25,514 bases of DNA from Prevotellaceae bacterium (lineage in GTDB: Bacteria > Bacteroidota > Bacteroidia > Bacteroidales > UBA932), in NCBI GenBank assembly GCA_031290755.1, contig JAITMY010000046.1:1-25514 (forward strand), given 5' to 3'. The position numbers and the translations under genes were made by a program. Every line of letters starts with the position of its first letter. The first letter of the stretch is position 1. Shown here piece after piece: positions 3,601-25,015 of the stretch. A model generated the notes under the pieces. The model searched no databases and was not told the origin of the DNA. It saw nothing but the letters and a program-made list of their open reading frames with translations.

Positions 3601-6168
3601 CTAAATTTCGAACATCACCCGGAGCACCACGGCGAAGTTGGCGAAGGCGTAGGGGGGCTTGCCGCTCCCGTCGAGGGGCACCCGCCAGCAGCCGCCAATG
3701 CTGAAGAGCTGAAAAATGTTTTTCAGGCCGGCGTAGGCCTCCACGTAGGGGACGGGCGAGCGGAGCGTGTGCAGGTAGTCGGGCATGTCGAGCGCACGGC
3801 TGTGCCGCTCCTTGTTCAGCGTGCCGTACAGCAGCTTGAAGCCCAGCAGCTCCTTGATGTTGAGCCGCTCTACGAGGGGAATTTTGTTAAACAGCAGCCC
3901 GTTGAGGTTGTACTCCACGAGGCAGGAGGCGTAGAGGTCGCTCGCCACGGTGAGGTTGTAGAGGAGGTTGAACTTGTAGCGTGCCAGCAGGTTCGACTCG
4001 TTGCTGCGGTGCCACTCGAGCGCGGGGAAGGGCACCGCGCCCACGATAGCCCCCGCCTCGAGCATGTAGAGCAGCTGCGTGGTGCCGAAGGTGAGGTGCT
4101 GCTTCACGGCGAGGTGCGCCTTCCCGTAGAAGCTGCCGCTGCCGTTGCCGTCCAGCGCGTAGCGCCCCAGCGTGAGGCTGGGGCTGAGGATGGGCAGGTT
4201 GCCGTTGCCGAGGTAAACGCGGTGGCCGAAGAAGTCGGAGCGGCGCTCGCTGTTGGACGAGATGCGCAGCCCCAGCGACGCCTCCTGCTGGCTGAACGCG
4301 CCCACCGGCGCCCCGCCGCGCGTGAAGGGCACGTAGGGGCCGGCCATGAAGTCGTAGGCGCTGACCCGCAGCGTGGAGGATAGCCAGCGCCGCCACTCCC
4401 TCTCGTGCGACAGGAACCCGCCGCGGCACATGGCGTAGCGGTAGTCCGTGCGCACGGCGAAGGCCGCCCGCCAAAACACGTCGTCGTCCAGCCCGATGGC
4501 GTTTTCGCGCAGCAGGGCTAAGTGGGTCAGGTTGTTGCCCACGCGGTAGGTGTCGTACTTTCCCTCGGCGCTCAGCACCTCGCGGCGGCGGGTTTTGCGC
4601 TTCCAGCTGAGGTTGAGCATCCCCTTGAAGCGCTGGTCGCAGGTGCCGTAGCCCACCATGCCGCTGGCGCAGAGCTGGGGGTGCAGCCGTGCGCTGGTGC
4701 GCAGGGCGAGGTTCAGCCGCAGCCCCTCCAGCCCGTTCAGCTTCACCATGTGGGTGTAAGGCCCGATGTCCACCTTGTCGAGGCTGTAGCAGCCGCCGCC
4801 CAGCACCTCCCCCAGGCGGTTGAGGGCTACAATCCACAGCTTGCGGTTGAGGTTGTTGAGGGCGGTTGCCGCCTGCGCCTCCACGCCCGAAAGGCTGTCG
4901 GGGTGCAGGGGGTGAGGCGAGACCCCTGCGGCGGTTCGCGCTTGCAGGTAGTCGGGCACGTTTTCCATTGCCTCCACCTCGGCGGTGGACGGGTTGAGCC
5001 TCACGTTGGAGTAGCGGTTGCTGATGGTGAAGCCCGCGGCGGCGTGCCGGATGGTGTCCATGAACTTCCAGAGGTGAAAGTCCATGTCTATCTCGTTGGT
5101 GGCCACGAAGGGCGTGGCGCTGTCGGGCAGCGTGTAGGTGAAGTCGAGCGTGCAGCGGATTACGTAGGGCACGTTGGACTTGGGCGAGAGGCGCGCCGCT
5201 ATTTTTTTGAGCGCAAAGAGGGAGTCGTACACCGTAAGCTCGCCGTAGAAGGCCGCATCGCGGGGGTTTTTGGGGGCAAACCTGATGCGGTACTCGCGCA
5301 GCCCCAGCGTGGGGTCGTACACCGTATCGTGCAGCAGGCGGTAGGTGTAGTAGCTCAGCCCCAGCGACGAGATGGGGCTAACCAGCGGGGTGTGCCCGAT
5401 GACGATGTTGTCGTCGTACACGTTCACCTCTTGGCTGAAGAACTGCATGTAGTCGGAAAATATTTCGGCGTCCAGCACCGGCATGGCCACGCTGTTCGAG
5501 TCCAGCACCACCTCCGTGCTTATGCGCGGGCTGCGGTTGTAGCCTATGGTTTTCCACCGCTCGCTGAACATCAGGGGGAGGGTGTAGCGCTTCACCGAGT
5601 CGGGCTGCGCTACGATAGCATCTTGCAGCATGTTCAACATGCCGCGCTTGGCGAGGAAGGCGCTGTCGATGTTGCGCAGCTGCACGAAGGTTTTTTGGTA
5701 CACGTCGGCGGTGTACGAGGCCAAGTTGCCGGGGTTGTTCCTTTTCTTGTGGGCAATGATGCTGCGGATGATGGGGTGCGCGGGGTTTTCGCCCGGCCTC
5801 ACCACTACCTCCGCCAGCGCCGTCGTTTGCTCCTCCATGCTGACGGTTACCAGCTCCCGCGGCGCCTTGTCCAGCACCACCTCTTTGGTGGCGTAGCCCA
5901 GCACCATGACCATAATCGTGGCCGGAAACTTGTAGGCAGGCACGGACAGCGCAAAGTAGCCGCTGTCGTTGGTCATCGCGCTCCTTTGTATCCCCGACGC
6001 CTTGAGGAGCACGCTGGCGTAGGGCACGGGCAGGCCGCTGGAGGCCTCCAGCACCTGCCCGCGCACTTTTTTCATCAGCCGCTGGGCAGGGGCGGCAGCG
6101 CTGCCGCTAAGCAGCACGAGCAGCAGCAGGGCAATGCAGCGAATATTTTGACGGAAAATAGGTAACAC
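3601..6168 (-). CDS. Outer-membrane protein with N-terminal carboxypeptidase-regulatory-like domain and DUF5686-like barrel
   Basis: Signal peptide; VRGQVLEASSGLPVPYASV...TNDSGYF...LAEVVVRPGENPAHPIIRSII; PLVSPIS...YYTYRL; F(Y)GELTV; C-terminal PYVEAYAGLKNIF and a terminal aromatic beta-strand (VMFEI). Architecture recognised from Bacteroidota DUF5686 proteins. Confidence 0.8.
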   Translation of the reverse strand: MLPIFRQNIRCIALLLLVLLSGSAAAPAQRLMKKVRGQVLEASSGLPVPYASVLLKASGIQRSAMTNDSGYFALSVPAYKFPATIMVMVLGYATKEVVLDKAPRELVTVSMEEQTTALAEVVVRPGENPAHPIIRSIIAHKKRNNPGNLASYTADVYQKTFVQLRNIDSAFLAKRGMLNMLQDAIVAQPDSVKRYTLPLMFSERWKTIGYNRSPRISTEVVLDSNSVAMPVLDAEIFSDYMQFFSQEVNVYDDNIVIGHTPLVSPISSLGLSYYTYRLLHDTVYDPTLGLREYRIRFAPKNPRDAAFYGELTVYDSLFALKKIAARLSPKSNVPYVIRCTLDFTYTLPDSATPFVATNEIDMDFHLWKFMDTIRHAAAGFTISNRYSNVRLNPSTAEVEAMENVPDYLQARTAAGVSPHPLHPDSLSGVEAQAATALNNLNRKLWIVALNRLGEVLGGGCYSLDKVDIGPYTHMVKLNGLEGLRLNLALRTSARLHPQLCASGMVGYGTCDQRFKGMLNLSWKRKTRRREVLSAEGKYDTYRVGNNLTHLALLRENAIGLDDDVFWRAAFAVRTDYRYAMCRGGFLSHEREWRRWLSSTLRVSAYDFMAGPYVPFTRGGAPVGAFSQQEASLGLRISSNSERRSDFFGHRVYLGNGNLPILSPSLTLGRYALDGNGSGSFYGKAHLAVKQHLTFGTTQLLYMLEAGAIVGAVPFPALEWHRSNESNLLARYKFNLLYNLTVASDLYASCLVEYNLNGLLFNKIPLVERLNIKELLGFKLLYGTLNKERHSRALDMPDYLHTLRSPVPYVEAYAGLKNIFQLFSIGGCWRVPLDGSGKPPYAFANFAVVLRVMFEI

Positions 6169-6305: not shown

Positions 6306-6797
6306 ATGGAAAACGGATTTATGATAGAGCTTGGCATTGCGCCTGCCGAGCGAAAAAAGCAGTACTACGCGCAGCAGTACCGCAGCATTTCGGCGCTGCT
6401 GCGCACCATTGACCCCTGCGAGGTGCGCACGGTGGGCGGCGTGCCGCAGTGCACAGGCAACCGCGCCGGCGATGCCGACGCTGACGTGGGCACGCTGTGC
6501 TGCACGGGCTGCCACCACCTGTCAGCCAAAGGGTGCAGGGTGAAGTCGCTGGGCTGCAAAATGTGGCTGTGCACTGCCGCCTTCAAAAACCTGCTCGACA
6601 AGTACCCGCAGCTCCCCACCGAAGTGCCGCAGCTGCTCAAGGAAATTCAGGAGACCAACCGCACGTGCCAGTTTTACGACATTCCGTTCCGCTCGCGGCA
6701 TTCGATGGAAGAAAATCTGGCCGGCACGCTCTACAAAGAGGGCTTCAAGGCCTCGAAAGAAGGGGCCACGCTACTTGCAAATAATAGCGCTTCCTGA
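6306..6797 (+). CDS. Hypothetical Cys-rich protein (9 Cys), probable Zn/Fe-S binding
   Basis: Coding-like GC3 bias, upstream promoter box, motif C-x10-C-x15-CC-x2-C-x7-C-x6-C-x4-C. ATG 6306 is preferred over TTG 6297. Confidence 0.7.
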   Translation: MENGFMIELGIAPAERKKQYYAQQYRSISALLRTIDPCEVRTVGGVPQCTGNRAGDADADVGTLCCTGCHHLSAKGCRVKSLGCKMWLCTAAFKNLLDKYPQLPTEVPQLLKEIQETNRTCQFYDIPFRSRHSMEENLAGTLYKEGFKASKEGATLLANNSAS

Positions 6798-7457
6798 CGC
6801 ATCGGGCAGGGGCAAAAAGGTAATATTTTCGCCCTCGCAAAATTGGCGCACCGCCTCCTTCGCGCCCCTGTACTCGCTGTTGTTGTAGTCGTGAACCAAG
6901 ATATACCCGCCCTTTTCGAGGCGGGGGTAAAAAAACTTCAGCCCTTGCAGGATAGGCTCGTATAAGTCGGCGTCCAAGTTCACGAAGCAAAACCTGTCCT
7001 CCAACCCCTCTGCCGTTTGCGGGAAAAAGCCTTTTTTGACAATGCACTTTTGGGGATACTTCATTGCTTTGAGCACCAAGTCAACGCTGGTGTTGGAAAA
7101 TTTTGCCTTCCTCGTTTCCCTTGCCGTCGAAAAGCGGTTGCTGCATTCTACGGCAACATCCTTGTCGTCGAACCCCTCAAAAGTGTCAAAAAGGTACAGC
7201 ATTTTGTCGGGAAACACATGGTTGATTTTTGAGGCAAATCCACCCCTGTAAACGCCCAGCTCCGCCACGTTCCCCGGCACCGCCTTCCTTTTGATTTCAT
7301 CGCCGCACAGGCACAGCACGGCCTGCCGCACCGTGTCCTGATGCAGGGGTAAGCCCCCCATTTTTGCCGAGTTGTACCGCAGGGAGATGAGGTAAACGCG
7401 GTGCCGCGACAAAATTTTAGCCACAACTTTGTGGGCGTAGCGCAAAATCTTTTTCAT
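6771..7457 (-). CDS. TylF/MycF (macrocin O-methyltransferase) family SAM-dependent methyltransferase
   Basis: VPGNVAELGVYRG, LYLFDTFEGF, KGFFPQT, FVNLDADLY, FYPRLEKGGYILVHDY. Confidence 0.9.
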   Translation of the reverse strand: MKKILRYAHKVVAKILSRHRVYLISLRYNSAKMGGLPLHQDTVRQAVLCLCGDEIKRKAVPGNVAELGVYRGGFASKINHVFPDKMLYLFDTFEGFDDKDVAVECSNRFSTARETRKAKFSNTSVDLVLKAMKYPQKCIVKKGFFPQTAEGLEDRFCFVNLDADLYEPILQGLKFFYPRLEKGGYILVHDYNNSEYRGAKEAVRQFCEGENITFLPLPDASGSAIICK

Positions 7458-7471
7458 GCTTTATTAGGGGT

Positions 7472-7520
7472 AAAAAATAAACCTCCTTCGCGTGCAGCCA
7501 AGCCGCAGCGCGAAGAAGGT
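7472..7520 (-). terminator. Intrinsic terminator (likely end of the dprA run)
   Basis: About 16-bp imperfect stem 7481-7520 (ACCTCCTTCGCGTGC / GCAGCGCGAAGAAGGT) followed on minus by TTATTTTTT. Confidence 0.65.
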
Positions 7521-7553
7521 TAATATGTTGCAATAAACAATAAAAAATGTTAC

Positions 7554-7563
7554 GGGGGGGGGG
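7554..7563. repeat. G10 homopolymer in AT-rich intergenic DNA
   Basis: Ten consecutive G at 7554-7563. Confidence 0.9.
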
Positions 7564-7751
7564 CAAAATTTCTATAACTCGTTAGTAGTATTGAGTTATA
7601 GGTGCTTGTAAAAATATTAAATGTCCCCATTTTGTTATGCTTAGTAAATGACAAAAAAAATTGACCGCGCGAAGGTCGGTAAAATTTTTGAAACCGGTGC
7701 GGAGAAGGAACTTTTTTTGCCAACAATATTTTTCCGTAGCCACGCCGCTCC

Positions 7752-9851
7752 CTAAAACTTGACTAACAGCTGAAGCTTCAGCTCGGTTTGGTAAGGGGCG
7801 GCTATCAGGGTGAGGCCTTCGCCAACGGTGGGGCGGTCGTAGTAGCGGGTGCGGGCGCAGCGCAGCCAGAGGTCTATGCGGGGCGTGGGCTGCCACTGGA
7901 GGTTGGCCACCCAGCGGGCGCCGCGCCCGTAGTAGGCGGGCACGGTGAAGGCGTAGAGCACGTCGCGCTCGTAGGCGTAGAGGCGCGAGGCGTAGCCGTC
8001 GGTGCTGAACAGGGCGTAGCGCAGGGAGGCAGTCAGGGGGAGGCGGGGGAGGGCGTAGGCGAGGTCTTGGAAGGCAAGGAGGCCACGCTCGGGCGGCTGC
8101 CCCTGCTTGCGGTAGGCGGAGGCTTCGAGGCGGGTTTCGCAGCTCAGGCCGTCGAGCAGGCGGTAGGCGATGCTGTAGCGGGCGGCGGCCTTTTCTACCG
8201 GCACGGTTATCTTTGTGGGGACGGCAGCCTCGGCGGCGGCGTTCTCCTCCTTGGCCTCGTAGCGCAGGCGGACGTACATGCGGCAGCTCTGGCGGGGGGT
8301 GTAGTCCACCTGTAGCAGGGCGTCGAAGCCGCTGGAGGGGGCGCTCACCCTGTACCGGAGCCACGGGAAGGAGAAGGCGTCGAAGCCCACGGTAATCTTC
8401 AGCTGGGGGAAGAGGAGGTTGGCGCCGAGGTAGAGGCCGCTCTCGTTGGCCACCTTGCCGCCCTCGGCGAAGGCGCTGGCGTAGTAGGCCTGATACTGAG
8501 GCTGGTAGTAGCGGTGGAGCAGCGAGAGCTGGAGGCGCGGGGCAACGCTGGCCATGCAGCCGTTGAGGACGGCGAGGCCACCGTTCTGGCTCAGGCCTAC
8601 CTCGCCGAAGGCGCGGAGCTGCCTGTAGAACCAGCGGTAGTCGGCGCTGAGGTTGGCGTTTTGGCTCCGCTGTAGCTCGAAGAGGCTGTAGGGCTGCACG
8701 TTTTTCTGGTACTCGCCCGCAAAGCGGTGCCACAGGCCGGTCAGCCCCAGCCGCAGGCGCTTGGCGCTGTAGGCTACGTTGGCGCCGGCCACCAGCTCGC
8801 CCACGGCGCCCTTGTCGGCCATGCTCTTGGGCGTGTTGTGCAGGCCGGTGGTTTGCAGGGTCGAGAAGCTGCCGGAGGAGTCCGCGCCGGCATCCACGTT
8901 TTTGTAGGAGATGAAGGCGGTGGCGGTGAGCGGCTTGGCGAGCCGGATGGTGGCGGCGGCGCCCCGAAAGAACATGTTCTCGTTGGCGCCGCTGTAGGCC
9001 ACGATGCCGCCGCCGCGGGCGGCCACGCCGAGGGCGTCGCTGGTTTTGCCGAAGGCGCCGCCCTGCCACAGCGCGAGGCCCTGCCCAAACTGGGCGTAGA
9101 AGTCGCCCACTACGAGCGTGCGCACCCGCCCGACGTTGCTTAGCTGCACGTGCCCGGAGTAGAAGTCGAAGCCAGCCTCGTTACCCCTTCGGCCAAAGGG
9201 TTCGCCGGCGTCCTTCTCTGCGGTCAGCCCCCAGCGGAGGTTGTCGCGGTAGGTGTAGCGGTAGCGGAGGTAGGTTGCCTGCGGGCTGCCGAGGTAGCGG
9301 GCGTTGGGCTTTTGCTGTAGCTCGTCGTCGCCGATAGGCGCGTAGCCCTGCTGCTCCTCAAGGGTTTGCTTGGCGCGTGCCAGCAGCTGGTGCTGCCCGC
9401 TGGTAAGCATACGGCGCAGCGAGGGCTGCTGGGCGTCCTTGTGTGGGCGCACCACCACGAAAGGCTCCAGCAGCGCCACCTGCTCGGGCGAGATGCCGTG
9501 CACGTATTGCAGCTCGTAGAGGGTTTTCATTTCGCCCTGCTGCGCCACGTACTCAAGGATGCTGGCCGCCTGAAACTCGTTGAGCACGCGCAGCTGTAGC
9601 AGCTCGGCTTCGGTGGCGGCGTTGAGGTTGAGCGGGCTGGCGGCGTAGCGCATCAGGGTTTCGTGCACCGTTTCCATAGTCAGGTCGGCATCCTCCAGCG
9701 TGGCCATTTTCTCCATAATCTGCTCAATGGCCTCCGGCGGGCTTAGGGCTGCCACGGGCAGCGCCGTCAGGGCGACCACGGCGGCGAGCAGGCAGGCGCG
9801 GAGGAGCCTCGCCGCTGCGCCGCGCCGGTGGGTGGGTAGGGTGCGCATCAC
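7752..9851 (-). CDS. ComEA-like helix-hairpin-helix domain protein fused to a large C-terminal outer-membrane beta-barrel
   Basis: Signal peptide; PLNLNAATEAELLQLRVLNEFQAASILEYVAQQGEMKTLYELQYVHGI is an HhH_3/ComEA pattern; then alternating amphipathic strands (GLTAEKDAGE, GDFYAQFGQGL, RLYAYERDVLY) ending in a terminal Phe (LQLLVKF). Confidence 0.85.
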   Translation of the reverse strand: MMRTLPTHRRGAAARLLRACLLAAVVALTALPVAALSPPEAIEQIMEKMATLEDADLTMETVHETLMRYAASPLNLNAATEAELLQLRVLNEFQAASILEYVAQQGEMKTLYELQYVHGISPEQVALLEPFVVVRPHKDAQQPSLRRMLTSGQHQLLARAKQTLEEQQGYAPIGDDELQQKPNARYLGSPQATYLRYRYTYRDNLRWGLTAEKDAGEPFGRRGNEAGFDFYSGHVQLSNVGRVRTLVVGDFYAQFGQGLALWQGGAFGKTSDALGVAARGGGIVAYSGANENMFFRGAAATIRLAKPLTATAFISYKNVDAGADSSGSFSTLQTTGLHNTPKSMADKGAVGELVAGANVAYSAKRLRLGLTGLWHRFAGEYQKNVQPYSLFELQRSQNANLSADYRWFYRQLRAFGEVGLSQNGGLAVLNGCMASVAPRLQLSLLHRYYQPQYQAYYASAFAEGGKVANESGLYLGANLLFPQLKITVGFDAFSFPWLRYRVSAPSSGFDALLQVDYTPRQSCRMYVRLRYEAKEENAAAEAAVPTKITVPVEKAAARYSIAYRLLDGLSCETRLEASAYRKQGQPPERGLLAFQDLAYALPRLPLTASLRYALFSTDGYASRLYAYERDVLYAFTVPAYYGRGARWVANLQWQPTPRIDLWLRCARTRYYDRPTVGEGLTLIAAPYQTELKLQLLVKF

Positions 9852-10708
9852 GGGGGCGTGGGTTTACTTTTCGGCGGGAAGCAGTAGCTGAGCGACAGCT
9901 GCGGCGAGTAGCCCAGCGCCTCGTGCCGCGAGAAGGCCATGTCAATGCGCAGCCTGCGGTAGGTGTAGCCAAATCCCGCGTAGATCTCCACCGGCTTGAG
10001 CTGCACCCCCAGCCGCACGGCGAGCACCTTGGCCACGAGCACCTCCACGCCTGCGCTGGCCTGCGCAGCCTGCGTGGAGCTTATCTTTGCCGCGAGAAAA
10101 ATTCCCACGTGGGGGGCAGCGTGGTAGCCCATGCCCACGTCGAACGCCACGGGCAGGCGCTCAAGGTAGGCATCGCTGAAGTAGCGGGCGCTGGTGAGGT
10201 TGAAGACATGGGCGCCCACCCAGAGGTTGTCCAGCGGCTCGGCCAGCAGGCCTGCCTCGCCGGTGAGGGCGTAGGTGCTGCCGTAGCCCGCCACCTGCAC
10301 GAGGTGGTAGTTGAGCTGCGCCCCCACCGCCATGCGCGGCGACAGGCGCTTGCCCACCGCCGCGCCCACCCGCGTTTCGCGGTACAGGGAGTAGCCGAAC
10401 GAGCACACGCTGAGGCCCAGCACCCCCACCACGGGGATGGGCGTGGCAAAGGCCGCCGCGCTAAGCCCCAGCTCCTCCGAGAAGTACCGGTTTTCGTAGT
10501 GCAGCGCGGCCTCCGGCGCGGCCAGAAACCCCAGCGCCGCTTGGTTGTTGTACACCGCGAAAACATCGGCGTTCACCACGCCGGCGTTGCCCAGGGCCGC
10601 CGCGCGGCTCCCCACGGGGAGCACGTTCACGTCGGCGAGGCAGGGCGCCACCGCTAAGCAGGCGCCGAGCAGGCAGGCGAGCTTCGCTATCAGGCTCCGG
10701 GTGACCAT
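9848..10708 (-). CDS. PorV/FadL-like small outer-membrane beta-barrel protein
   Basis: Start taken at ATG 10708 (MVTRSLIAKL..., signal peptide), because the track's longer start overlaps dprA. GSRAAALGNAG...VYNNQAALGF N-terminal motif typical of FadL/PorV-like barrels; amphipathic strands; stop overlaps the next ATG (ATGA, 9848-9851). Confidence 0.75.
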   Translation of the reverse strand: MVTRSLIAKLACLLGACLAVAPCLADVNVLPVGSRAAALGNAGVVNADVFAVYNNQAALGFLAAPEAALHYENRYFSEELGLSAAAFATPIPVVGVLGLSVCSFGYSLYRETRVGAAVGKRLSPRMAVGAQLNYHLVQVAGYGSTYALTGEAGLLAEPLDNLWVGAHVFNLTSARYFSDAYLERLPVAFDVGMGYHAAPHVGIFLAAKISSTQAAQASAGVEVLVAKVLAVRLGVQLKPVEIYAGFGYTYRRLRIDMAFSRHEALGYSPQLSLSYCFPPKSKPTPP

Positions 10709-10722
10709 AGGTGTACTTGCTT

Positions 10723-11841
10723 TTAAATTCTCACAAACATTTTTCCGGGCAGCGCTTTCACCAAGCCGCTGAACTCCATGTTGAGCAGCGCCGACGAGGC
10801 CTGCGACATGGACAGCCCCACGCTGCGGCAAATCACGTCAACGCTTTGCGCCTCGGCGGAGGCGGATAAAAAGGTCAGCAGCTGCTGCTCGGCCTCCGAA
10901 AGGTTTTCGGGGAAGATGGGCAGCTGCACGGCGGCGGGCTTCCGCTTCACGTCCCAGCTGAGGGTGCAGGCCACGTCCGTCGCGCCTTCAATGAGCGAGG
11001 CCTTGTTGCTCTTAATGAGCTGTAGGCAGCCCTCCGAGGCCTTGTCGCCCACGCGACCGGGGATGGCCATCACCTCGCGGGAGTACTCGAAGGCCATGCC
11101 TGCGGTAGTGAGCGACCCGCCTTTTGCCGCCGACTCCACCACGATGGTGGCATCGGCCATGCCGGCCACGATGCGGTTGCGCTGCACGAAGTTCGCCGGG
11201 TCTATCTTGCACTTTGAGGTAAATTCGCTGAGCAGGGCGCCGCCGTGCTGTAGCATCTCGTGGGCAACGCTGGCGTGCTGCTGGGGGTAGAGCGTGTCCA
11301 AGCCGTGCCCCAACACCGCCACCGTGGGCAGGCCGTTTTTCAGCGCGGCGCGGTGCGCACAAACGTCAATGCCAAACGCCAAGCCGCTCACCACAAGGGG
11401 GTTGTAGCCCTGCCCGGCCACCTCGTGCAGCAAGCTTTCGCATTGCTGCTTGCCGTAGGGGGTGGCGTTGCGCGTACCCACGATGCTCAGCACCTTTGCA
11501 GGGTTGAGGTCGGTGGCGCCCTTGACGTACAGCACCAGCGGGCCGTCGTCGCAGCTGCGCAGGCGCGTGGGGTAGTCCTTGTCGAGGTAAAACAGCGCCC
11601 GTATGCCGTTTTGCTCCACGAACGCCAGCTCTTCCTCGGCGCGGCGCAGCACGCTGGAGGTGGAGATGGCCTGCGCCGTAACCTGCCCGATGCTGGGGAT
11701 TTTTTGCAGCCGCAGCTTGTCCGAGCCGAGCGCAGCCCGTGCGCTGCCGCAGTAGGCAATTAACTTTTTTGCCGTGATGCTCCCCACGCCCGGAATGAGC
11801 GTGAGGGCAATCTGGTATAAAAGTTCCTCGCTCTCTGCCAC
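10723..11841 (-). CDS. dprA: DNA-processing protein DprA (Smf)
   Basis: LTLIPGVG, YPTRL...DGPLVLYVKG, SIVGTRNATPYG, VSGLAFGIDVCAHRAAL, AVLGHGLD, FVQRNRIVAG, KGGSLTTA, C-terminal winged helix (LLNMEFSGLVKALPG). GTG start. Confidence 0.97.
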   Translation of the reverse strand: MAESEELLYQIALTLIPGVGSITAKKLIAYCGSARAALGSDKLRLQKIPSIGQVTAQAISTSSVLRRAEEELAFVEQNGIRALFYLDKDYPTRLRSCDDGPLVLYVKGATDLNPAKVLSIVGTRNATPYGKQQCESLLHEVAGQGYNPLVVSGLAFGIDVCAHRAALKNGLPTVAVLGHGLDTLYPQQHASVAHEMLQHGGALLSEFTSKCKIDPANFVQRNRIVAGMADATIVVESAAKGGSLTTAGMAFEYSREVMAIPGRVGDKASEGCLQLIKSNKASLIEGATDVACTLSWDVKRKPAAVQLPIFPENLSEAEQQLLTFLSASAEAQSVDVICRSVGLSMSQASSALLNMEFSGLVKALPGKMFVRI

Positions 11842-11852
11842 GCTACGTTACG

Positions 11853-13103
11853 CTACAATTTGAACTCCTTTTTTATGGCGCTCACAAAGTCCAGCTTCTC
11901 CCACGTGAAGAACTCGACCTCCTTGGCCTGCTTTTTGCCGTCGATTTGCAGCTCCACCTTTTTCTTAAACGGTGCGCGGCCAAAGTGCCCGTAGGAGGCG
12001 GTGGCCTCAAAAATCGGGTTGAGCAGCGACAGGCGCTGCACAATGGCGTAGGGGCGCAGGTCGAACAGCTTCTCTATCTTTGCGGCGATTTCGCCATCGC
12101 TCAGCTTCACCTTGGCGGTGCCGTAGGTGTTTACGTAAACGCCCACCGGCTTGGCCACGCCAATGGCGTAGGCCACCTGCACGAGCACCTGCTCTGCGAC
12201 TTTGGCCGCCACCAAGTTTTTGGCAATGTGCCGGGCTGCGTAGGCTGCCGAGCGGTCAACCTTGCTGCTGTCCTTGCCCGAAAACGCGCCGCCGCCGTGG
12301 GCGCCCCAGCCGCCGTAGGTGTCCACGATAATCTTGCGGCCTGTAAGCCCCGTGTCGCCGTGCGGCCCGCCGATAACGAACTTGCCCGTGGGGTTCACGT
12401 GCAGGATAAGCTTCTTGTCGAACAGCTTGGCCACGCCCGCGCCCAGCTTCTTGACGGTGCGCGGAATGAGGATGCTCTCCACGTCCTCCTTGATTTTTTT
12501 GAGCATCGCCGCATCCTTGTCAAACTCGTCGTGCTGCGTAGAAATCACGACGGTGTGCACGCGCTGCGGCTTGCTGTTTTCGCCGTACTCAACGGTAACT
12601 TGGCTTTTGCTGTCCGGGCGGAGGTACTTCATCACCTTACCCTCGCGGCGGATGGCGGCCAGCTCCACGAGCAGCTCGTGCGCAATGGTGAGCGAAAGGG
12701 GCATCAGCTCCTTCGTCTCGTTGCAGGCGTAGCCAAACATGATGCCCTGGTCGCCGGCGCCCTGCTCCTCGGCCTTGCGCCGCACCACGCCGCGGTTGAT
12801 GTCCGGCGACTGCGCGTGGATGGCGGAGATCACGCCGCACGACTTGCTCTCGAACATGTACTCGCCCTTGTTGTAGCCAATGCGCTCAATCACGCGGCGA
12901 GCCGTTTCCTGCACGTCCACGTAGGCGGTGGTGTTCACCTCCCCGCTCAGCACGCAGAGGCCGGTGGTAACAAGCGTTTCGCACGCCACCTTCGACGCCG
13001 GGTCTTGACTTAGGAATGCGTCAACAAGCGCATCCGAAATTTGGTCGGCAACCTTGTCCGGGTGCCCTTCAGAGACAGACTCTGATGTGAAAAAGTAAGC
13101 CAT
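11853..13103 (-). CDS. metK: S-adenosylmethionine synthetase
   Basis: [72 protein letters not shown]. Confidence 0.99.
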
Positions 13104-15341: not shown

Positions 15342-15446
15342 AATTTTATACCTTTACGCTGCGAAAGGGGCAGCGCCGGCAAAGGTAGCGGAAATGCCCC
15401 AGATTTGCAACTGTAACACAGATAAAACAACGTAATTATTCATGCT

Positions 15447-16214
15447 ATGAAGCTGATTTCCTACAACGTAAACGGGCTGAGGGCCGCTATGGGCAAGGGC
15501 TTGACCGAGTGGCTCAGGGAGGCTAACGGCGACGTGCTGTGCCTCCAGGAGATTAAGGCAACGCAGGAGCAGATTGACGAGGCCGCGCTGCGCGCCCTGG
15601 GCTACGAGCACCTCTTTTGGTACTCGGCGCAGAAAAGGGGCTACAGCGGCACCGCCGTCCTCTGCAAGGCCAAGCCCAACGACGTGCGCTACGGCATGGG
15701 CATCCGCGAATACGACAGCGAGGGGCGCCTGCTCCGCGTGGACTTCGACGCGTTTACGCTCATCTGCACCTACTTCCCGTCCGGCACCTCGGGCGACGAG
15801 CGGCAGGCCTTCAAGATGCGCTACTTAGAGGACTTCTCCCGCTACATCGCCGCCCTGCGCCGCGAAAAGCCCAACCTCATCATCACCGGCGACCTCAACA
15901 TTTGCCACAAGCCCATCGACATCAACCGCCCCGAAAAGCACGAGACCATGTCGGGCTTCCTGCCCGAAGAGCGGGCGTGGTTCGACGGCTTTGTCGGCTC
16001 CGGCTTTGTCGATACGTTTCGCGCCTTCAGCCAAGCGCCCAACCAGTATAGCTGGTGGAGCTTTCGCGCCGGCGCCCGCGCCAAAAACCTCGGCTGGCGC
16101 ATCGACTACTTTCTGTGCACCGCCTCGCTACAGGGCAAGCTCCGAGGCGCAGGCATCTACCCCGCCGCCGTCCACTCCGACCACTGCCCCGTGGCCGTGG
16201 AGGTGGAGGTGTAA
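15447..16214 (+). CDS. xth: Exodeoxyribonuclease III / AP endonuclease
   Basis: ISYNVNGLRA, LCLQEIK, GYSGTAV, DSEGR, GDLNICH, WWSFRA, GWRIDY, SDHCP. Confidence 0.97.
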   Translation: MKLISYNVNGLRAAMGKGLTEWLREANGDVLCLQEIKATQEQIDEAALRALGYEHLFWYSAQKRGYSGTAVLCKAKPNDVRYGMGIREYDSEGRLLRVDFDAFTLICTYFPSGTSGDERQAFKMRYLEDFSRYIAALRREKPNLIITGDLNICHKPIDINRPEKHETMSGFLPEERAWFDGFVGSGFVDTFRAFSQAPNQYSWWSFRAGARAKNLGWRIDYFLCTASLQGKLRGAGIYPAAVHSDHCPVAVEVEV

Positions 16215-22330: not shown

Positions 22331-22357
22331 TAGGGAAATCTTTAAATTATTGCTGAT

Positions 22358-23023
22358 ATGGACGACTACGAAGTGCAAAAGGGAGAAAATCAGCACATTT
22401 CTACCGAACAAGGGGCACTACTCAACCAAGCGCAAGGCGCACCGCCATTAGAAGCCGCCAATGCCCTGCTCAACGAGGAGCTGCACAACTTTAAGCATGG
22501 CACACAAAAAGGGGAGTTGCACTTAGGTAAGCCATTAGCTTGCCTAATGGCCGCGGGCGTACAAGCCAAAGAAATAACCATTACTCCAAAAGTGCTCAAA
22601 GAGCATTTGGGTAAGCACGGTCTTGCTCCCGACGATCTGAAAGGGCTTGCAAAGGCTATTCAAGAGCCGTTAGTGGTATATGAGTGGGGTAAAAAACTCC
22701 CCTCTACCGTTATCGTTACCGAATTAACAATACAAGACGGACGTAAAATAGCCATTGCGATTAGGCTAGCGAAGAACGGAAGCAGGCTTAATGTAAATGA
22801 AGTTGCTACTGTTCACGGCAAAACCAATAGCCGCCTACTGGAAGACTTTTTAAAATCTACCCCCGAAGAGTTAGGGGGTGAAAAGTTAAAGTGGGTAGAG
22901 CACAAAAAAGTTTTGGATTGGTTAGGATTAGTCCCACCGAAGGGGACAGCCTCACTAACCAATCCAGCACTTAATTCGATAGCAAAGGTAGTAAAAGAAT
23001 TTGAAAATCCAAACACTTTGTAA
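22358..23023 (+). CDS. Stand-alone phage MuF C-terminal (MuF-C/BECR-like) domain protein, putative RNase toxin/effector
   Basis: ANALLNEEL...LHLGKP..LMAAGV...ITITPKVL..HLGKHGL..DDLKGLAKAIQEPLVVY...VIVTEL..DGRKIAIAI...VNEVATVHGK...AKVVKEFENP matches the MuF-C pattern seen in polyvalent proteins. GC about 42-48% in hand-counted lines, lower than the flanking core genes. Confidence 0.7.
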   Translation: MDDYEVQKGENQHISTEQGALLNQAQGAPPLEAANALLNEELHNFKHGTQKGELHLGKPLACLMAAGVQAKEITITPKVLKEHLGKHGLAPDDLKGLAKAIQEPLVVYEWGKKLPSTVIVTELTIQDGRKIAIAIRLAKNGSRLNVNEVATVHGKTNSRLLEDFLKSTPEELGGEKLKWVEHKKVLDWLGLVPPKGTASLTNPALNSIAKVVKEFENPNTL

Positions 23024-23885: not shown

Positions 23886-24526
23886 ACAAGCTTACTGCTC
23901 TGCTGAGCTACTTTTTCTTCCTGTTTTCTGCAATTATTTTTTCAATATCCAGCACAAATTCCATTTTAAATTTTTCGGATATTTGTTTCTGCTCCTTACT
24001 TTTCAAACTTGAATTATAGATAACGTGGTATGAATTCGTCGGATCGTAGGTACAACGAAGACAAATATCCATATATTTACTCCCATAAAAAGAATCATTA
24101 CAGATGTCAAGTTGTAAAGTGGTATCGCTATTAGCAAATTGAAAAAGAAAACTACCTTTCCTCCATTCTTTTTGTTTATCATAATAAAATTTTTGAGCAT
24201 CCGTATAGGAGAGGAGTAAACATGAAGTGTCTGGTAATCTTGCAAGTTCATGTTTTAAAGCTTGCGGAGACAACCATATTTCTGGATGTTGTACAAAAAA
24301 ACTATCCACAGCTTGCAACATCTCTTGCCAAGTCGCATTACCTACTTTTTTATAGCACACAATTGGTGTTGGTGGCGGAGGTGCTACTATAGAACATTGA
24401 TTAAATAAAATGAATAATAATAATGCTTTGTTTTTCATACAGATTTTTTTACAAATTTACTGCTCTGTTTAGCTGCTTTTTCTTCCTGTTTTCTGCAATT
24501 ATTTTTTCAATTTCCAGCACAAATTC
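23886..24526. repeat. Direct repeat pair at the 3' ends of paralogs 1 and 2 (offset 565 nt)
   Basis: 23911-23961 vs 24476-24526 are identical at 50 of 51 nt; weaker similarity extends to 23886/24451. Confidence 0.9.
23908..24438 (-). CDS. Hypothetical (lipo)protein, array paralog 1
   Basis: Signal-like N-terminus with Cys15; QEMLQAVDSFFVQHP, FQFANSDT and C-terminal KFKMEFVLDIEKIIAENRKKK are shared with the neighbouring gene. AT-rich. Confidence 0.75.
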   Translation of the reverse strand: MKNKALLLFILFNQCSIVAPPPPTPIVCYKKVGNATWQEMLQAVDSFFVQHPEIWLSPQALKHELARLPDTSCLLLSYTDAQKFYYDKQKEWRKGSFLFQFANSDTTLQLDICNDSFYGSKYMDICLRCTYDPTNSYHVIYNSSLKSKEQKQISEKFKMEFVLDIEKIIAENRKKK

Positions 24527-25015
24527 AATCCTAAAACGCTTTGTGAAATACTTGCGCTTTTTAGTAGATACATCACAGGAAGTTAGCCTTAAACGCTCAT
24601 TAGGGATATAAACATGATAGCAAACATCAGCATACGCATTATCATACAAAATAGCGTTTGAAACATATAAGAGAAGGGCTGTATCGCTATTAAGGAAGCG
24701 AAAATGGCATTCAAGGCCAATTACCCCTGTCGCGTACGAGTTTATAGAATTATACTTTTCTTTTAAATAGTTGCACTCCTGACAATTTGACAATTGTGCA
24801 CATGAATCATTTAACAGCATAATTGTTTCGCATGTAATTCTATTATCAGGATGTTGCATAAAAAAACTATCTATTGCTTCCACAATTTCTTGCGGTTTTG
24901 CTTCAATTTTAAAGCGATCCATGATGCGAGTACCCGGGCCTAATGGATTGTAACATAAGCACCCAGATACGATAATTGCAAACATTGGTAGAAAAACATT
25001 GCGTTTCATATTCAT
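24449..25015 (-). CDS. Hypothetical lipoprotein, array paralog 2
   Basis: Lipobox IVSGC; QEIVEAIDSFFMQHP, FRFLNSDT, RFRIEFVLEIEKIIAENRKKK. AT-rich. Confidence 0.78.
   Translation of the reverse strand: MNMKRNVFLPMFAIIVSGCLCYNPLGPGTRIMDRFKIEAKPQEIVEAIDSFFMQHPDNRITCETIMLLNDSCAQLSNCQECNYLKEKYNSINSYATGVIGLECHFRFLNSDTALLLYVSNAILYDNAYADVCYHVYIPNERLRLTSCDVSTKKRKYFTKRFRIEFVLEIEKIIAENRKKKQLNRAVNL

Follow-up and report, generated by a model that had tools for sequence, protein, structure and literature searches.

Naturally competent Bacteroidota take DNA across the outer membrane without type IV pili by a route that is only partly known, and a barrel with a ComEA-like domain is an obvious candidate for this step. 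The only outer-membrane system of the phylum with genetic evidence for pilus-free DNA passage is a DdbC/DdbD-like TonB-dependent transporter (TBDT) with a DUF5689 lid, known as DdbC-DdbD in Bacteroides thetaiotaomicron and as RA0C_RS04915/04920 in Riemerella anatipestifer and serving DNA utilisation or transformation (PMC8459023, PMC12478041). In R. anatipestifer these outer-membrane parts are essential for transformation, and the helix-hairpin-helix (HhH) protein involved is a periplasmic one with multiple HhH modules (PMC8459023, PMC12478041). The outer-membrane DNA step in Porphyromonas gingivalis has been stated to be unclear (PMC11532111). Here we report on a 25.5-kb stretch (25,514 nt; hereafter the window), the whole of contig JAITMY010000046.1 of a metagenome-assembled genome (MAG) of a Prevotellaceae bacterium (GCA_031290755.1; 1.28 Mb, 51% complete, 200 contigs). 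In it, dprA stands next to genes for two outer-membrane beta-barrels, the larger of which carries a ComEA-fold HhH module, and a sequence-only reading had proposed that the three genes encode a pilus-independent DNA-uptake system. We show that the locus consists of an ordinary dprA, packed behind metK, and a conserved, uncharacterised two-barrel outer-membrane module of the Bacteroidota.

The barrel pair is a conserved unit. Among 80 loci fetched from one-genome-per-species contigs, 73 were informative, and in 72 of these the gene for the small barrel lies directly upstream of that for the large barrel on the same strand. Eight loci are without the small barrel; seven of them have less than 500 nt of contig upstream, too little for its gene, which leaves L049 as the single genuine absence. 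Of 400 Bacteroidota genomes with a completeness of 90% or more, 321 have the large barrel, as do 139 of 180 genera, and the 642 homologues of this barrel at E<=1e-3 belong to the Bacteroidota in every named case. In the window both genes are on the minus strand, the small barrel (286 aa, ATG start) at 9848-10708 and the large outer-membrane protein (699 aa) at 7752-9851, and they are translationally coupled. Their junction reads GTGATG, in which the TGA stop overlaps the GTG start by 4 nt, or the ATG at 9848 by 1 nt. The 4-nt overlap put forward earlier is thus right for the GTG start, but the motif is not the ATGA that had been described, and with the ATG start the overlap shrinks to 1 nt; the database copy of the large protein, at 698 aa, matches the ATG start. 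We found no published study of this HhH-barrel family in the literature.

By its fold the modelled small barrel is of the PorV/FadL type. The AlphaFold2 model (pLDDT 92.7) has 14 strands and an N-terminal hatch-like segment behind a signal peptide, and its best Foldseek matches are the PorV chains 6h3i_F and 8gl6_F (TM 0.75-0.77), followed by FadL (TM ~0.69). It nonetheless falls below the NCBIfam cut-offs, scoring 45.8 bits against 90 for PorV_fam (NF033709) and 19.2 against 220 for PorQ (NF033711). In the large protein a signal peptide and a helical N-terminal part precede ~24 long strands, which DSSP places between residues 153 and 698 of the AlphaFold2 model (pLDDT 89.7, pTM 0.85); the barrel domain (residues ~151-699, at 7755-9401, minus strand) has no Pfam match. 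Structural matches to the large barrel, from Foldseek against the PDB and from a wide VIA-align search against PDB representatives, were generic only: FimD/PapC ushers, Occ porins, AlgE, TBDTs and MtrB. A search of the ESM Atlas for structural kin returned only the family itself.

Set against described systems, the pair resembles SprA(Sov)-PorV of the type IX translocon (6h3i, 8gl6), in which a 14-strand FadL-type barrel likewise accompanies a much larger one; the genes of the pair studied here are conserved neighbours, with a lateral interface predicted between their products. The differences are nevertheless substantial, since the large barrel of ~24 strands and 699 aa is non-homologous to SprA, which has 36 strands and ~2400 aa, the window's own genome has a separate SprA, the pair is distributed independently of SprA, and the small barrel stays under the PorV_fam cut-off. 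The 24-strand FimD/PapC ushers, which have a plug domain, are similar to the large barrel in strand number and size (Z 12-13.7 over ~355-374 residues), and a globular domain gating the lumen is conceivable here too. However, the large barrel has no sequence relationship to ushers, lacks their N- and C-terminal domains and has no chaperone or pilin genes nearby. DdbC-DdbD is likewise an outer-membrane system of Bacteroidota, but the pair is without Plug, TonB_dep_Rec and CarboxypepD_reg domains: neither barrel has a PF07715 or PF00593 match, no DUF5689 was found among the scanned open reading frames (ORFs) of the window, and no DUF5689 partner occurs among the neighbours scanned. Two barrels and no lipoprotein lid make up the pair, an architecture unrelated to that of DdbC-DdbD.

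Co-folding of the two barrels gave an ipSAE of 0.42 compared with 0.00 for the best control, the same interface being found in two of three runs, which we count as weak support: 58 of 80 solved complexes and 2 of 110 mismatched pairs pass the mark, but only 7 of the 80 do so with values at or below 0.60, as do both of the passing mismatches. The predicted interface brings strands around residues 519-671 of the large barrel against residues 122-215 of the small barrel. Together with the adjacency of the two genes, this is consistent with the earlier proposal that the small barrel is a PorV-like partner of the large one. Guided by these models and by the analogy with SprA-PorV, we lean modestly towards a heteromeric outer-membrane channel complex, comparable to SprA-PorV or BamA-BamG. 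The large barrel would be the conduit, the small barrel would dock on its wall around strands 17-23, and the N-terminal ComEA-fold module, degenerate and acidic, would sit at the periplasmic end as a plug or adaptor and not as a DNA clamp.

The HhH module of the large protein (residues 73-132, at 9456-9635, minus strand) deserves closer attention, because it was central to the idea of DNA uptake. It matches HHH_3 (PF12836) with 37 bits against a cut-off of 27. Residues 71-135 superpose on Geobacillus ComEA 8dss with Z 11.8 and a root-mean-square deviation of 1.2 A over 65 residues at 29% identity, and on the Thermus protein 2duy with Z 10, so that calling the domain ComEA-like was correct at the level of the fold; 8dfk is a further ComEA structure. 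In sequence, by contrast, TIGR01259 comE scores only 30.3 bits against a cut-off of 152.35. The first hairpin, PGIGPAK in ComEA, reads RVLNEFQ here, and the second, GIG in ComEA, is GIS in this protein and GFD in the majority of relatives. The glycine pair of the first hairpin is missing from all 66 homologues compared; D or E follows this hairpin in 62 of them, and Q94 occupies the position of a ComEA lysine in 65. The module has a net charge of -6 (family median -4, range -8 to +1), and for the N-terminal region as a whole the family median is -11. In Vibrio cholerae ComEA, the changes G60E, K63E and K62/63A abolish DNA binding and transformation (PMC3879209).

Judged from its residues, then, the module of this clade no longer has the Gly-x-Gly hairpins and lysines that ComEA uses for DNA binding. 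Since equivalent changes inactivate V. cholerae ComEA, we do not read the module as a DNA clamp; in this clade it does not appear to be a ComEA-type DNA binder, and the role of DNA ratchet suggested for it is disfavoured. Compared with ComEA it shares the fold and the HHH_3 match but is fused to an outer-membrane barrel, is acidic where ComEA is basic, has its hairpin glycines and lysines replaced, and is not linked to comEC. Distant homologues from other classes (L096-L099 in family f24, L101 in family f21) have hairpins reading LPGLS or LPLLT and a module net charge of +1 to +2. As these homologues keep LPG-type hairpins and a basic module, the large-barrel family probably descends from barrels with a genuine, working ComEA domain. 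The barrel domain itself has a net charge of +18 (family median +11). We dropped an argument built on an acidic plug in a basic barrel, because the unrelated DUF5686 protein of the window is also at +20 and basicity is therefore not distinctive.

The position of dprA is a separate matter. Its product (372 aa, 10723-11841, minus strand) is a canonical DNA-processing protein A, with matches to PF02481 (DNA_processg_A, 240.7 bits, E 1.2e-71), PF17782 (DprA_WH, 46.5 bits, E 3.7e-12) and TIGR00732 (216.7 bits against a cut-off of 191.15). ORFs, Pfam/NCBIfam and the AlphaFold2 models confirmed that dprA, the PorV/FadL-like barrel and the HhH-barrel protein are three real, co-oriented genes as first described, with 14 nt between dprA and the small barrel. 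They belong to a minus-strand array of four tightly packed genes headed by metK (S-adenosylmethionine synthetase, 11853-13103), which shares the orientation of dprA, precedes it by a gap of 11 nt and has all three S-AdoMet_synt Pfam domains and a TIGR01034 score of 518.8 bits. This plainly unrelated housekeeping gene is packed as tightly to dprA as dprA is to the barrels, and with metK counted in the array the tight packing of dprA with the barrels is incidental.

Indeed, dprA adjoins the barrel pair in none of 83 other related loci, even at E<=10, and in none of the 10 congeneric and 8 same-order genomes that hold both genes; in all 18 the two are on different contigs. Its orthologues in congeners are 59-71% identical and lie on contigs other than that of the pair. 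In the two congeners examined (G403 and G405) the order is mutY-ssb-small barrel-large barrel with recJ convergent, and dprA is elsewhere in the genome. The three closest metagenomic relatives (63-64% identity) have ssb, not dprA, upstream of the small barrel. The nearest kin of the window are termite-gut and other 'Prevotellaceae/Bacteroidales bacterium' MAGs, and the arrangement of dprA next to the pair is unique to a single termite-gut species. Because the linkage is unique to this species, an outcome that had been named beforehand as refuting the idea, the claim that dprA is functionally coupled to the barrels is unsupported.

In the two congeners dprA has a different neighbour. On their dprA contigs (G403:C58 and G405:C1) a DUF5686-type outer-membrane gene lies immediately downstream of dprA (L102:6459-9008 and L104:2333-4894), encoding a divergent CarboxypepD_reg + DUF5686 protein. 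In the species studied here, dprA and the DUF5686 gene are separated by the barrel pair and a gene for a TylF-like methyltransferase, the DUF5686 gene being ~4.5 kb downstream of dprA (3601-6168, minus strand; CarboxypepD_reg + DUF5686 outer-membrane protein of 855 aa; DUF5686 E 2.1e-37, CarbopepD_reg_2 E 7.8e-13). The adjacency of dprA and DUF5686 is confined to G403, G405 and, interrupted, the window; a broader pattern was considered and rejected, as the same-order genomes checked do not show it. The placement of dprA beside the pair is a species-specific rearrangement that joined two unrelated units, and dprA is incidental to the barrels.

Elsewhere the pair keeps varied company. Its commonest neighbour is purE, at 32 loci, followed by hpt (23), adk (22) and purK (6), and UPRTase, PNP and purL genes are near the pair of one relative. 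Upstream of the pair, ssb occurs at 5 loci of one clade and mutY is nearby at 2, both being upstream in the genus of the window, while recJ is convergent downstream, on the opposite strand, at 12 loci, 3-16 nt past the large-barrel stop in 6 and within ~5 kb in 6 more. This recJ/ssb neighbourhood of DNA repair seems to be confined to related clades. The DNA-handling and the purine or nucleotide neighbours alike reflect few independent events, mostly inherited synteny, and carry little weight. As a side observation, the loci with recJ, a recurrent DNA-repair neighbourhood, include L082, L103 and L105.

Several points weigh against the heteromeric channel. Co-folding supports contact between the barrels weakly, with no interface in one run of three. 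Nor is the pairing universal in the phylum: in four genomes of family f24 and one of f28 no small-barrel gene adjoins the large barrel, and in two of these five none was detected; family f24, which is without SprA, has the large barrel by itself in the midst of housekeeping genes. The DNA-handling neighbours (ssb, recJ, mutY, and dprA here) and the more ComEA-like distant homologues point another way, and in view of them a nucleic-acid substrate for the pair is plausible. The proposed plug and its periplasmic location derive from general barrel topology together with structural alignments to TBDTs that begin at residues 36-47, and both complex formation and transport by members of the family are predictions. 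Even so, the two-barrel module is present in ~80% of the sampled Bacteroidota genomes independently of the type IX secretion system, and its substrate would define a new envelope machine in a phylum that matters in gut, ocean and soil habitats.

The alternative that survives best is the one from which this analysis started, namely that the pair is a pilus-independent DNA-uptake device in which the large barrel forms the pore with the small barrel as its accessory, the HhH module binds DNA or acts as a ratchet for it, and ComEC and DprA receive the DNA. The ComEA fold of the module, dprA next door, ssb upstream in the closest clade, recJ convergent downstream at its 12 loci, the LPG-type hairpins and basic residues of the distant homologues and the unclear outer-membrane step of P. 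gingivalis (PMC11532111) all speak for it. Yet the dprA adjacency belongs to this species only, ssb and recJ each occur in related clades only, recJ moreover on the opposite strand, and purE is the commonest neighbour. Nor is there a link to ComEC: comEC adjoins the pair at none of 85 loci, and in 10 diverse complete or near-complete genomes it is in every case more than 200 kb away or on another contig. The survey of gene neighbourhoods that had been suggested for dprA and comEC thus came out against the proposal on both counts. The loss of hairpin glycines and lysines, with a module that is acidic across the clade, argues in the same direction.

Further evidence against DNA uptake comes from R. 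anatipestifer, which uses a different outer-membrane system, the DdbC/DdbD-like TBDT with its DUF5689 lid (PMC8459023, PMC12478041), and from the window's own genome, which encodes a multi-HhH protein of the R. anatipestifer kind elsewhere. On contig C198 (L089:808-1791, plus strand, running to the contig end) there is a membrane-anchored protein with three HhH modules, one of them with a canonical LPGIG hairpin (HHH_3 64.7 bits), similar to what is described for RA0C_RS02645, the HhH protein that R. anatipestifer requires for transformation (PMC8459023). The ComEC gene of the same genome is on contig C148. We regard uptake of DNA by the pair as unlikely: given a dprA linkage seen in one species and the loss of DNA-binding features in the module, a DNA-uptake machine is unsupported here, and the window is not usable as evidence for one.

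A bolder version, which we consider rather less likely still, would make the two-barrel module the missing pilus-free nucleic-acid conduit of the Bacteroidota, descended from a barrel with a working ComEA domain. The links to dprA, ssb, recJ and mutY would then reflect function, and the acidic, degenerate HhH module would mimic DNA and serve as a gate within a basic lumen.

It is improbable, in our view, that the pair is a nutrient-scavenging pore for nucleic-acid fragments or nucleotides, with the degenerate HhH module as an ancestral leftover. Such a role would suit the frequent nucleotide-metabolism neighbours (purE, purK, hpt and adk, with UPRTase, PNP and purL in one relative), and DNA-utilisation loci do exist in Bacteroidales (PMC12478041). 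However, the hpt-adk-obg block is divergently transcribed and probably represents inherited synteny in one large clade, not independent events; no nuclease, nucleotidase or binding lipoprotein was found in the window or the loci examined, and there is no direct evidence for any substrate.

A type IX secretion system accessory, suggested by the PorV chains of translocon structures among the small barrel's best matches, its weak PorV_fam score, the analogy to SprA-PorV and the SprA encoded in this genome, is very improbable and was rejected, because the phyletic patterns of SprA and the large barrel are decoupled (in family f8 all 28 genomes have SprA and none has the large barrel; in family f24 the large barrel occurs in 85 of 86 genomes and SprA in none) and the small barrel is far under the PorV and PorQ cut-offs. 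Just as remote is an assembly chimera at the dprA-barrel junction, which the incomplete and fragmented MAG and the uniqueness of the arrangement among relatives might suggest: a termite-gut metagenome contig made with another assembler covers 9000-11131, both junctions included, at even depth and with 2 mismatches, GC content is alike on both sides of the dprA/barrel junction and gene boundaries are clean, and as the independent contig bridges both junctions we rejected a binning or scaffolding artefact.

Downstream of the large barrel, a terminator-like hairpin with a U-run (7470-7521, minus strand) is real, as first noted. RNA folding gave -30.3 kcal/mol for 7480-7521 (z -6.64), none of 200 shuffles folding as well, with the U-run after it. 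It is situated ~230 nt past the large-barrel stop and only ~13 nt ahead of the ATG of the next gene, a TylF-like O-methyltransferase (6771-7457, minus strand; TylF E 8.9e-20). The AT-rich spacer of 294 nt that follows the large barrel (7458-7751) holds this very stable hairpin and a run of ten C at 7554-7563 (minus strand), and could represent either a scar of rearrangement or a 5' leader element. A sigma-70 promoter scan found none, and as that consensus is not applicable to Bacteroidota the scan is silent on transcription.

Two other features of the window lie apart from the array. An Exo_endo_phos family protein of 262 aa (15426-16211, plus strand), encoded after rsgA and ~3.6 kb from dprA, is probably an exonuclease III-type enzyme, and nothing ties it to the barrels. 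Towards the contig end, an ORF with a phage MuF C-terminal domain (E 9.4e-14; 22346-23020, plus strand) adjoins a stretch at 24001-25000 of only 34% GC, compared with 60-70% in the rest of the contig; together they may be the remnant of a mobile element.

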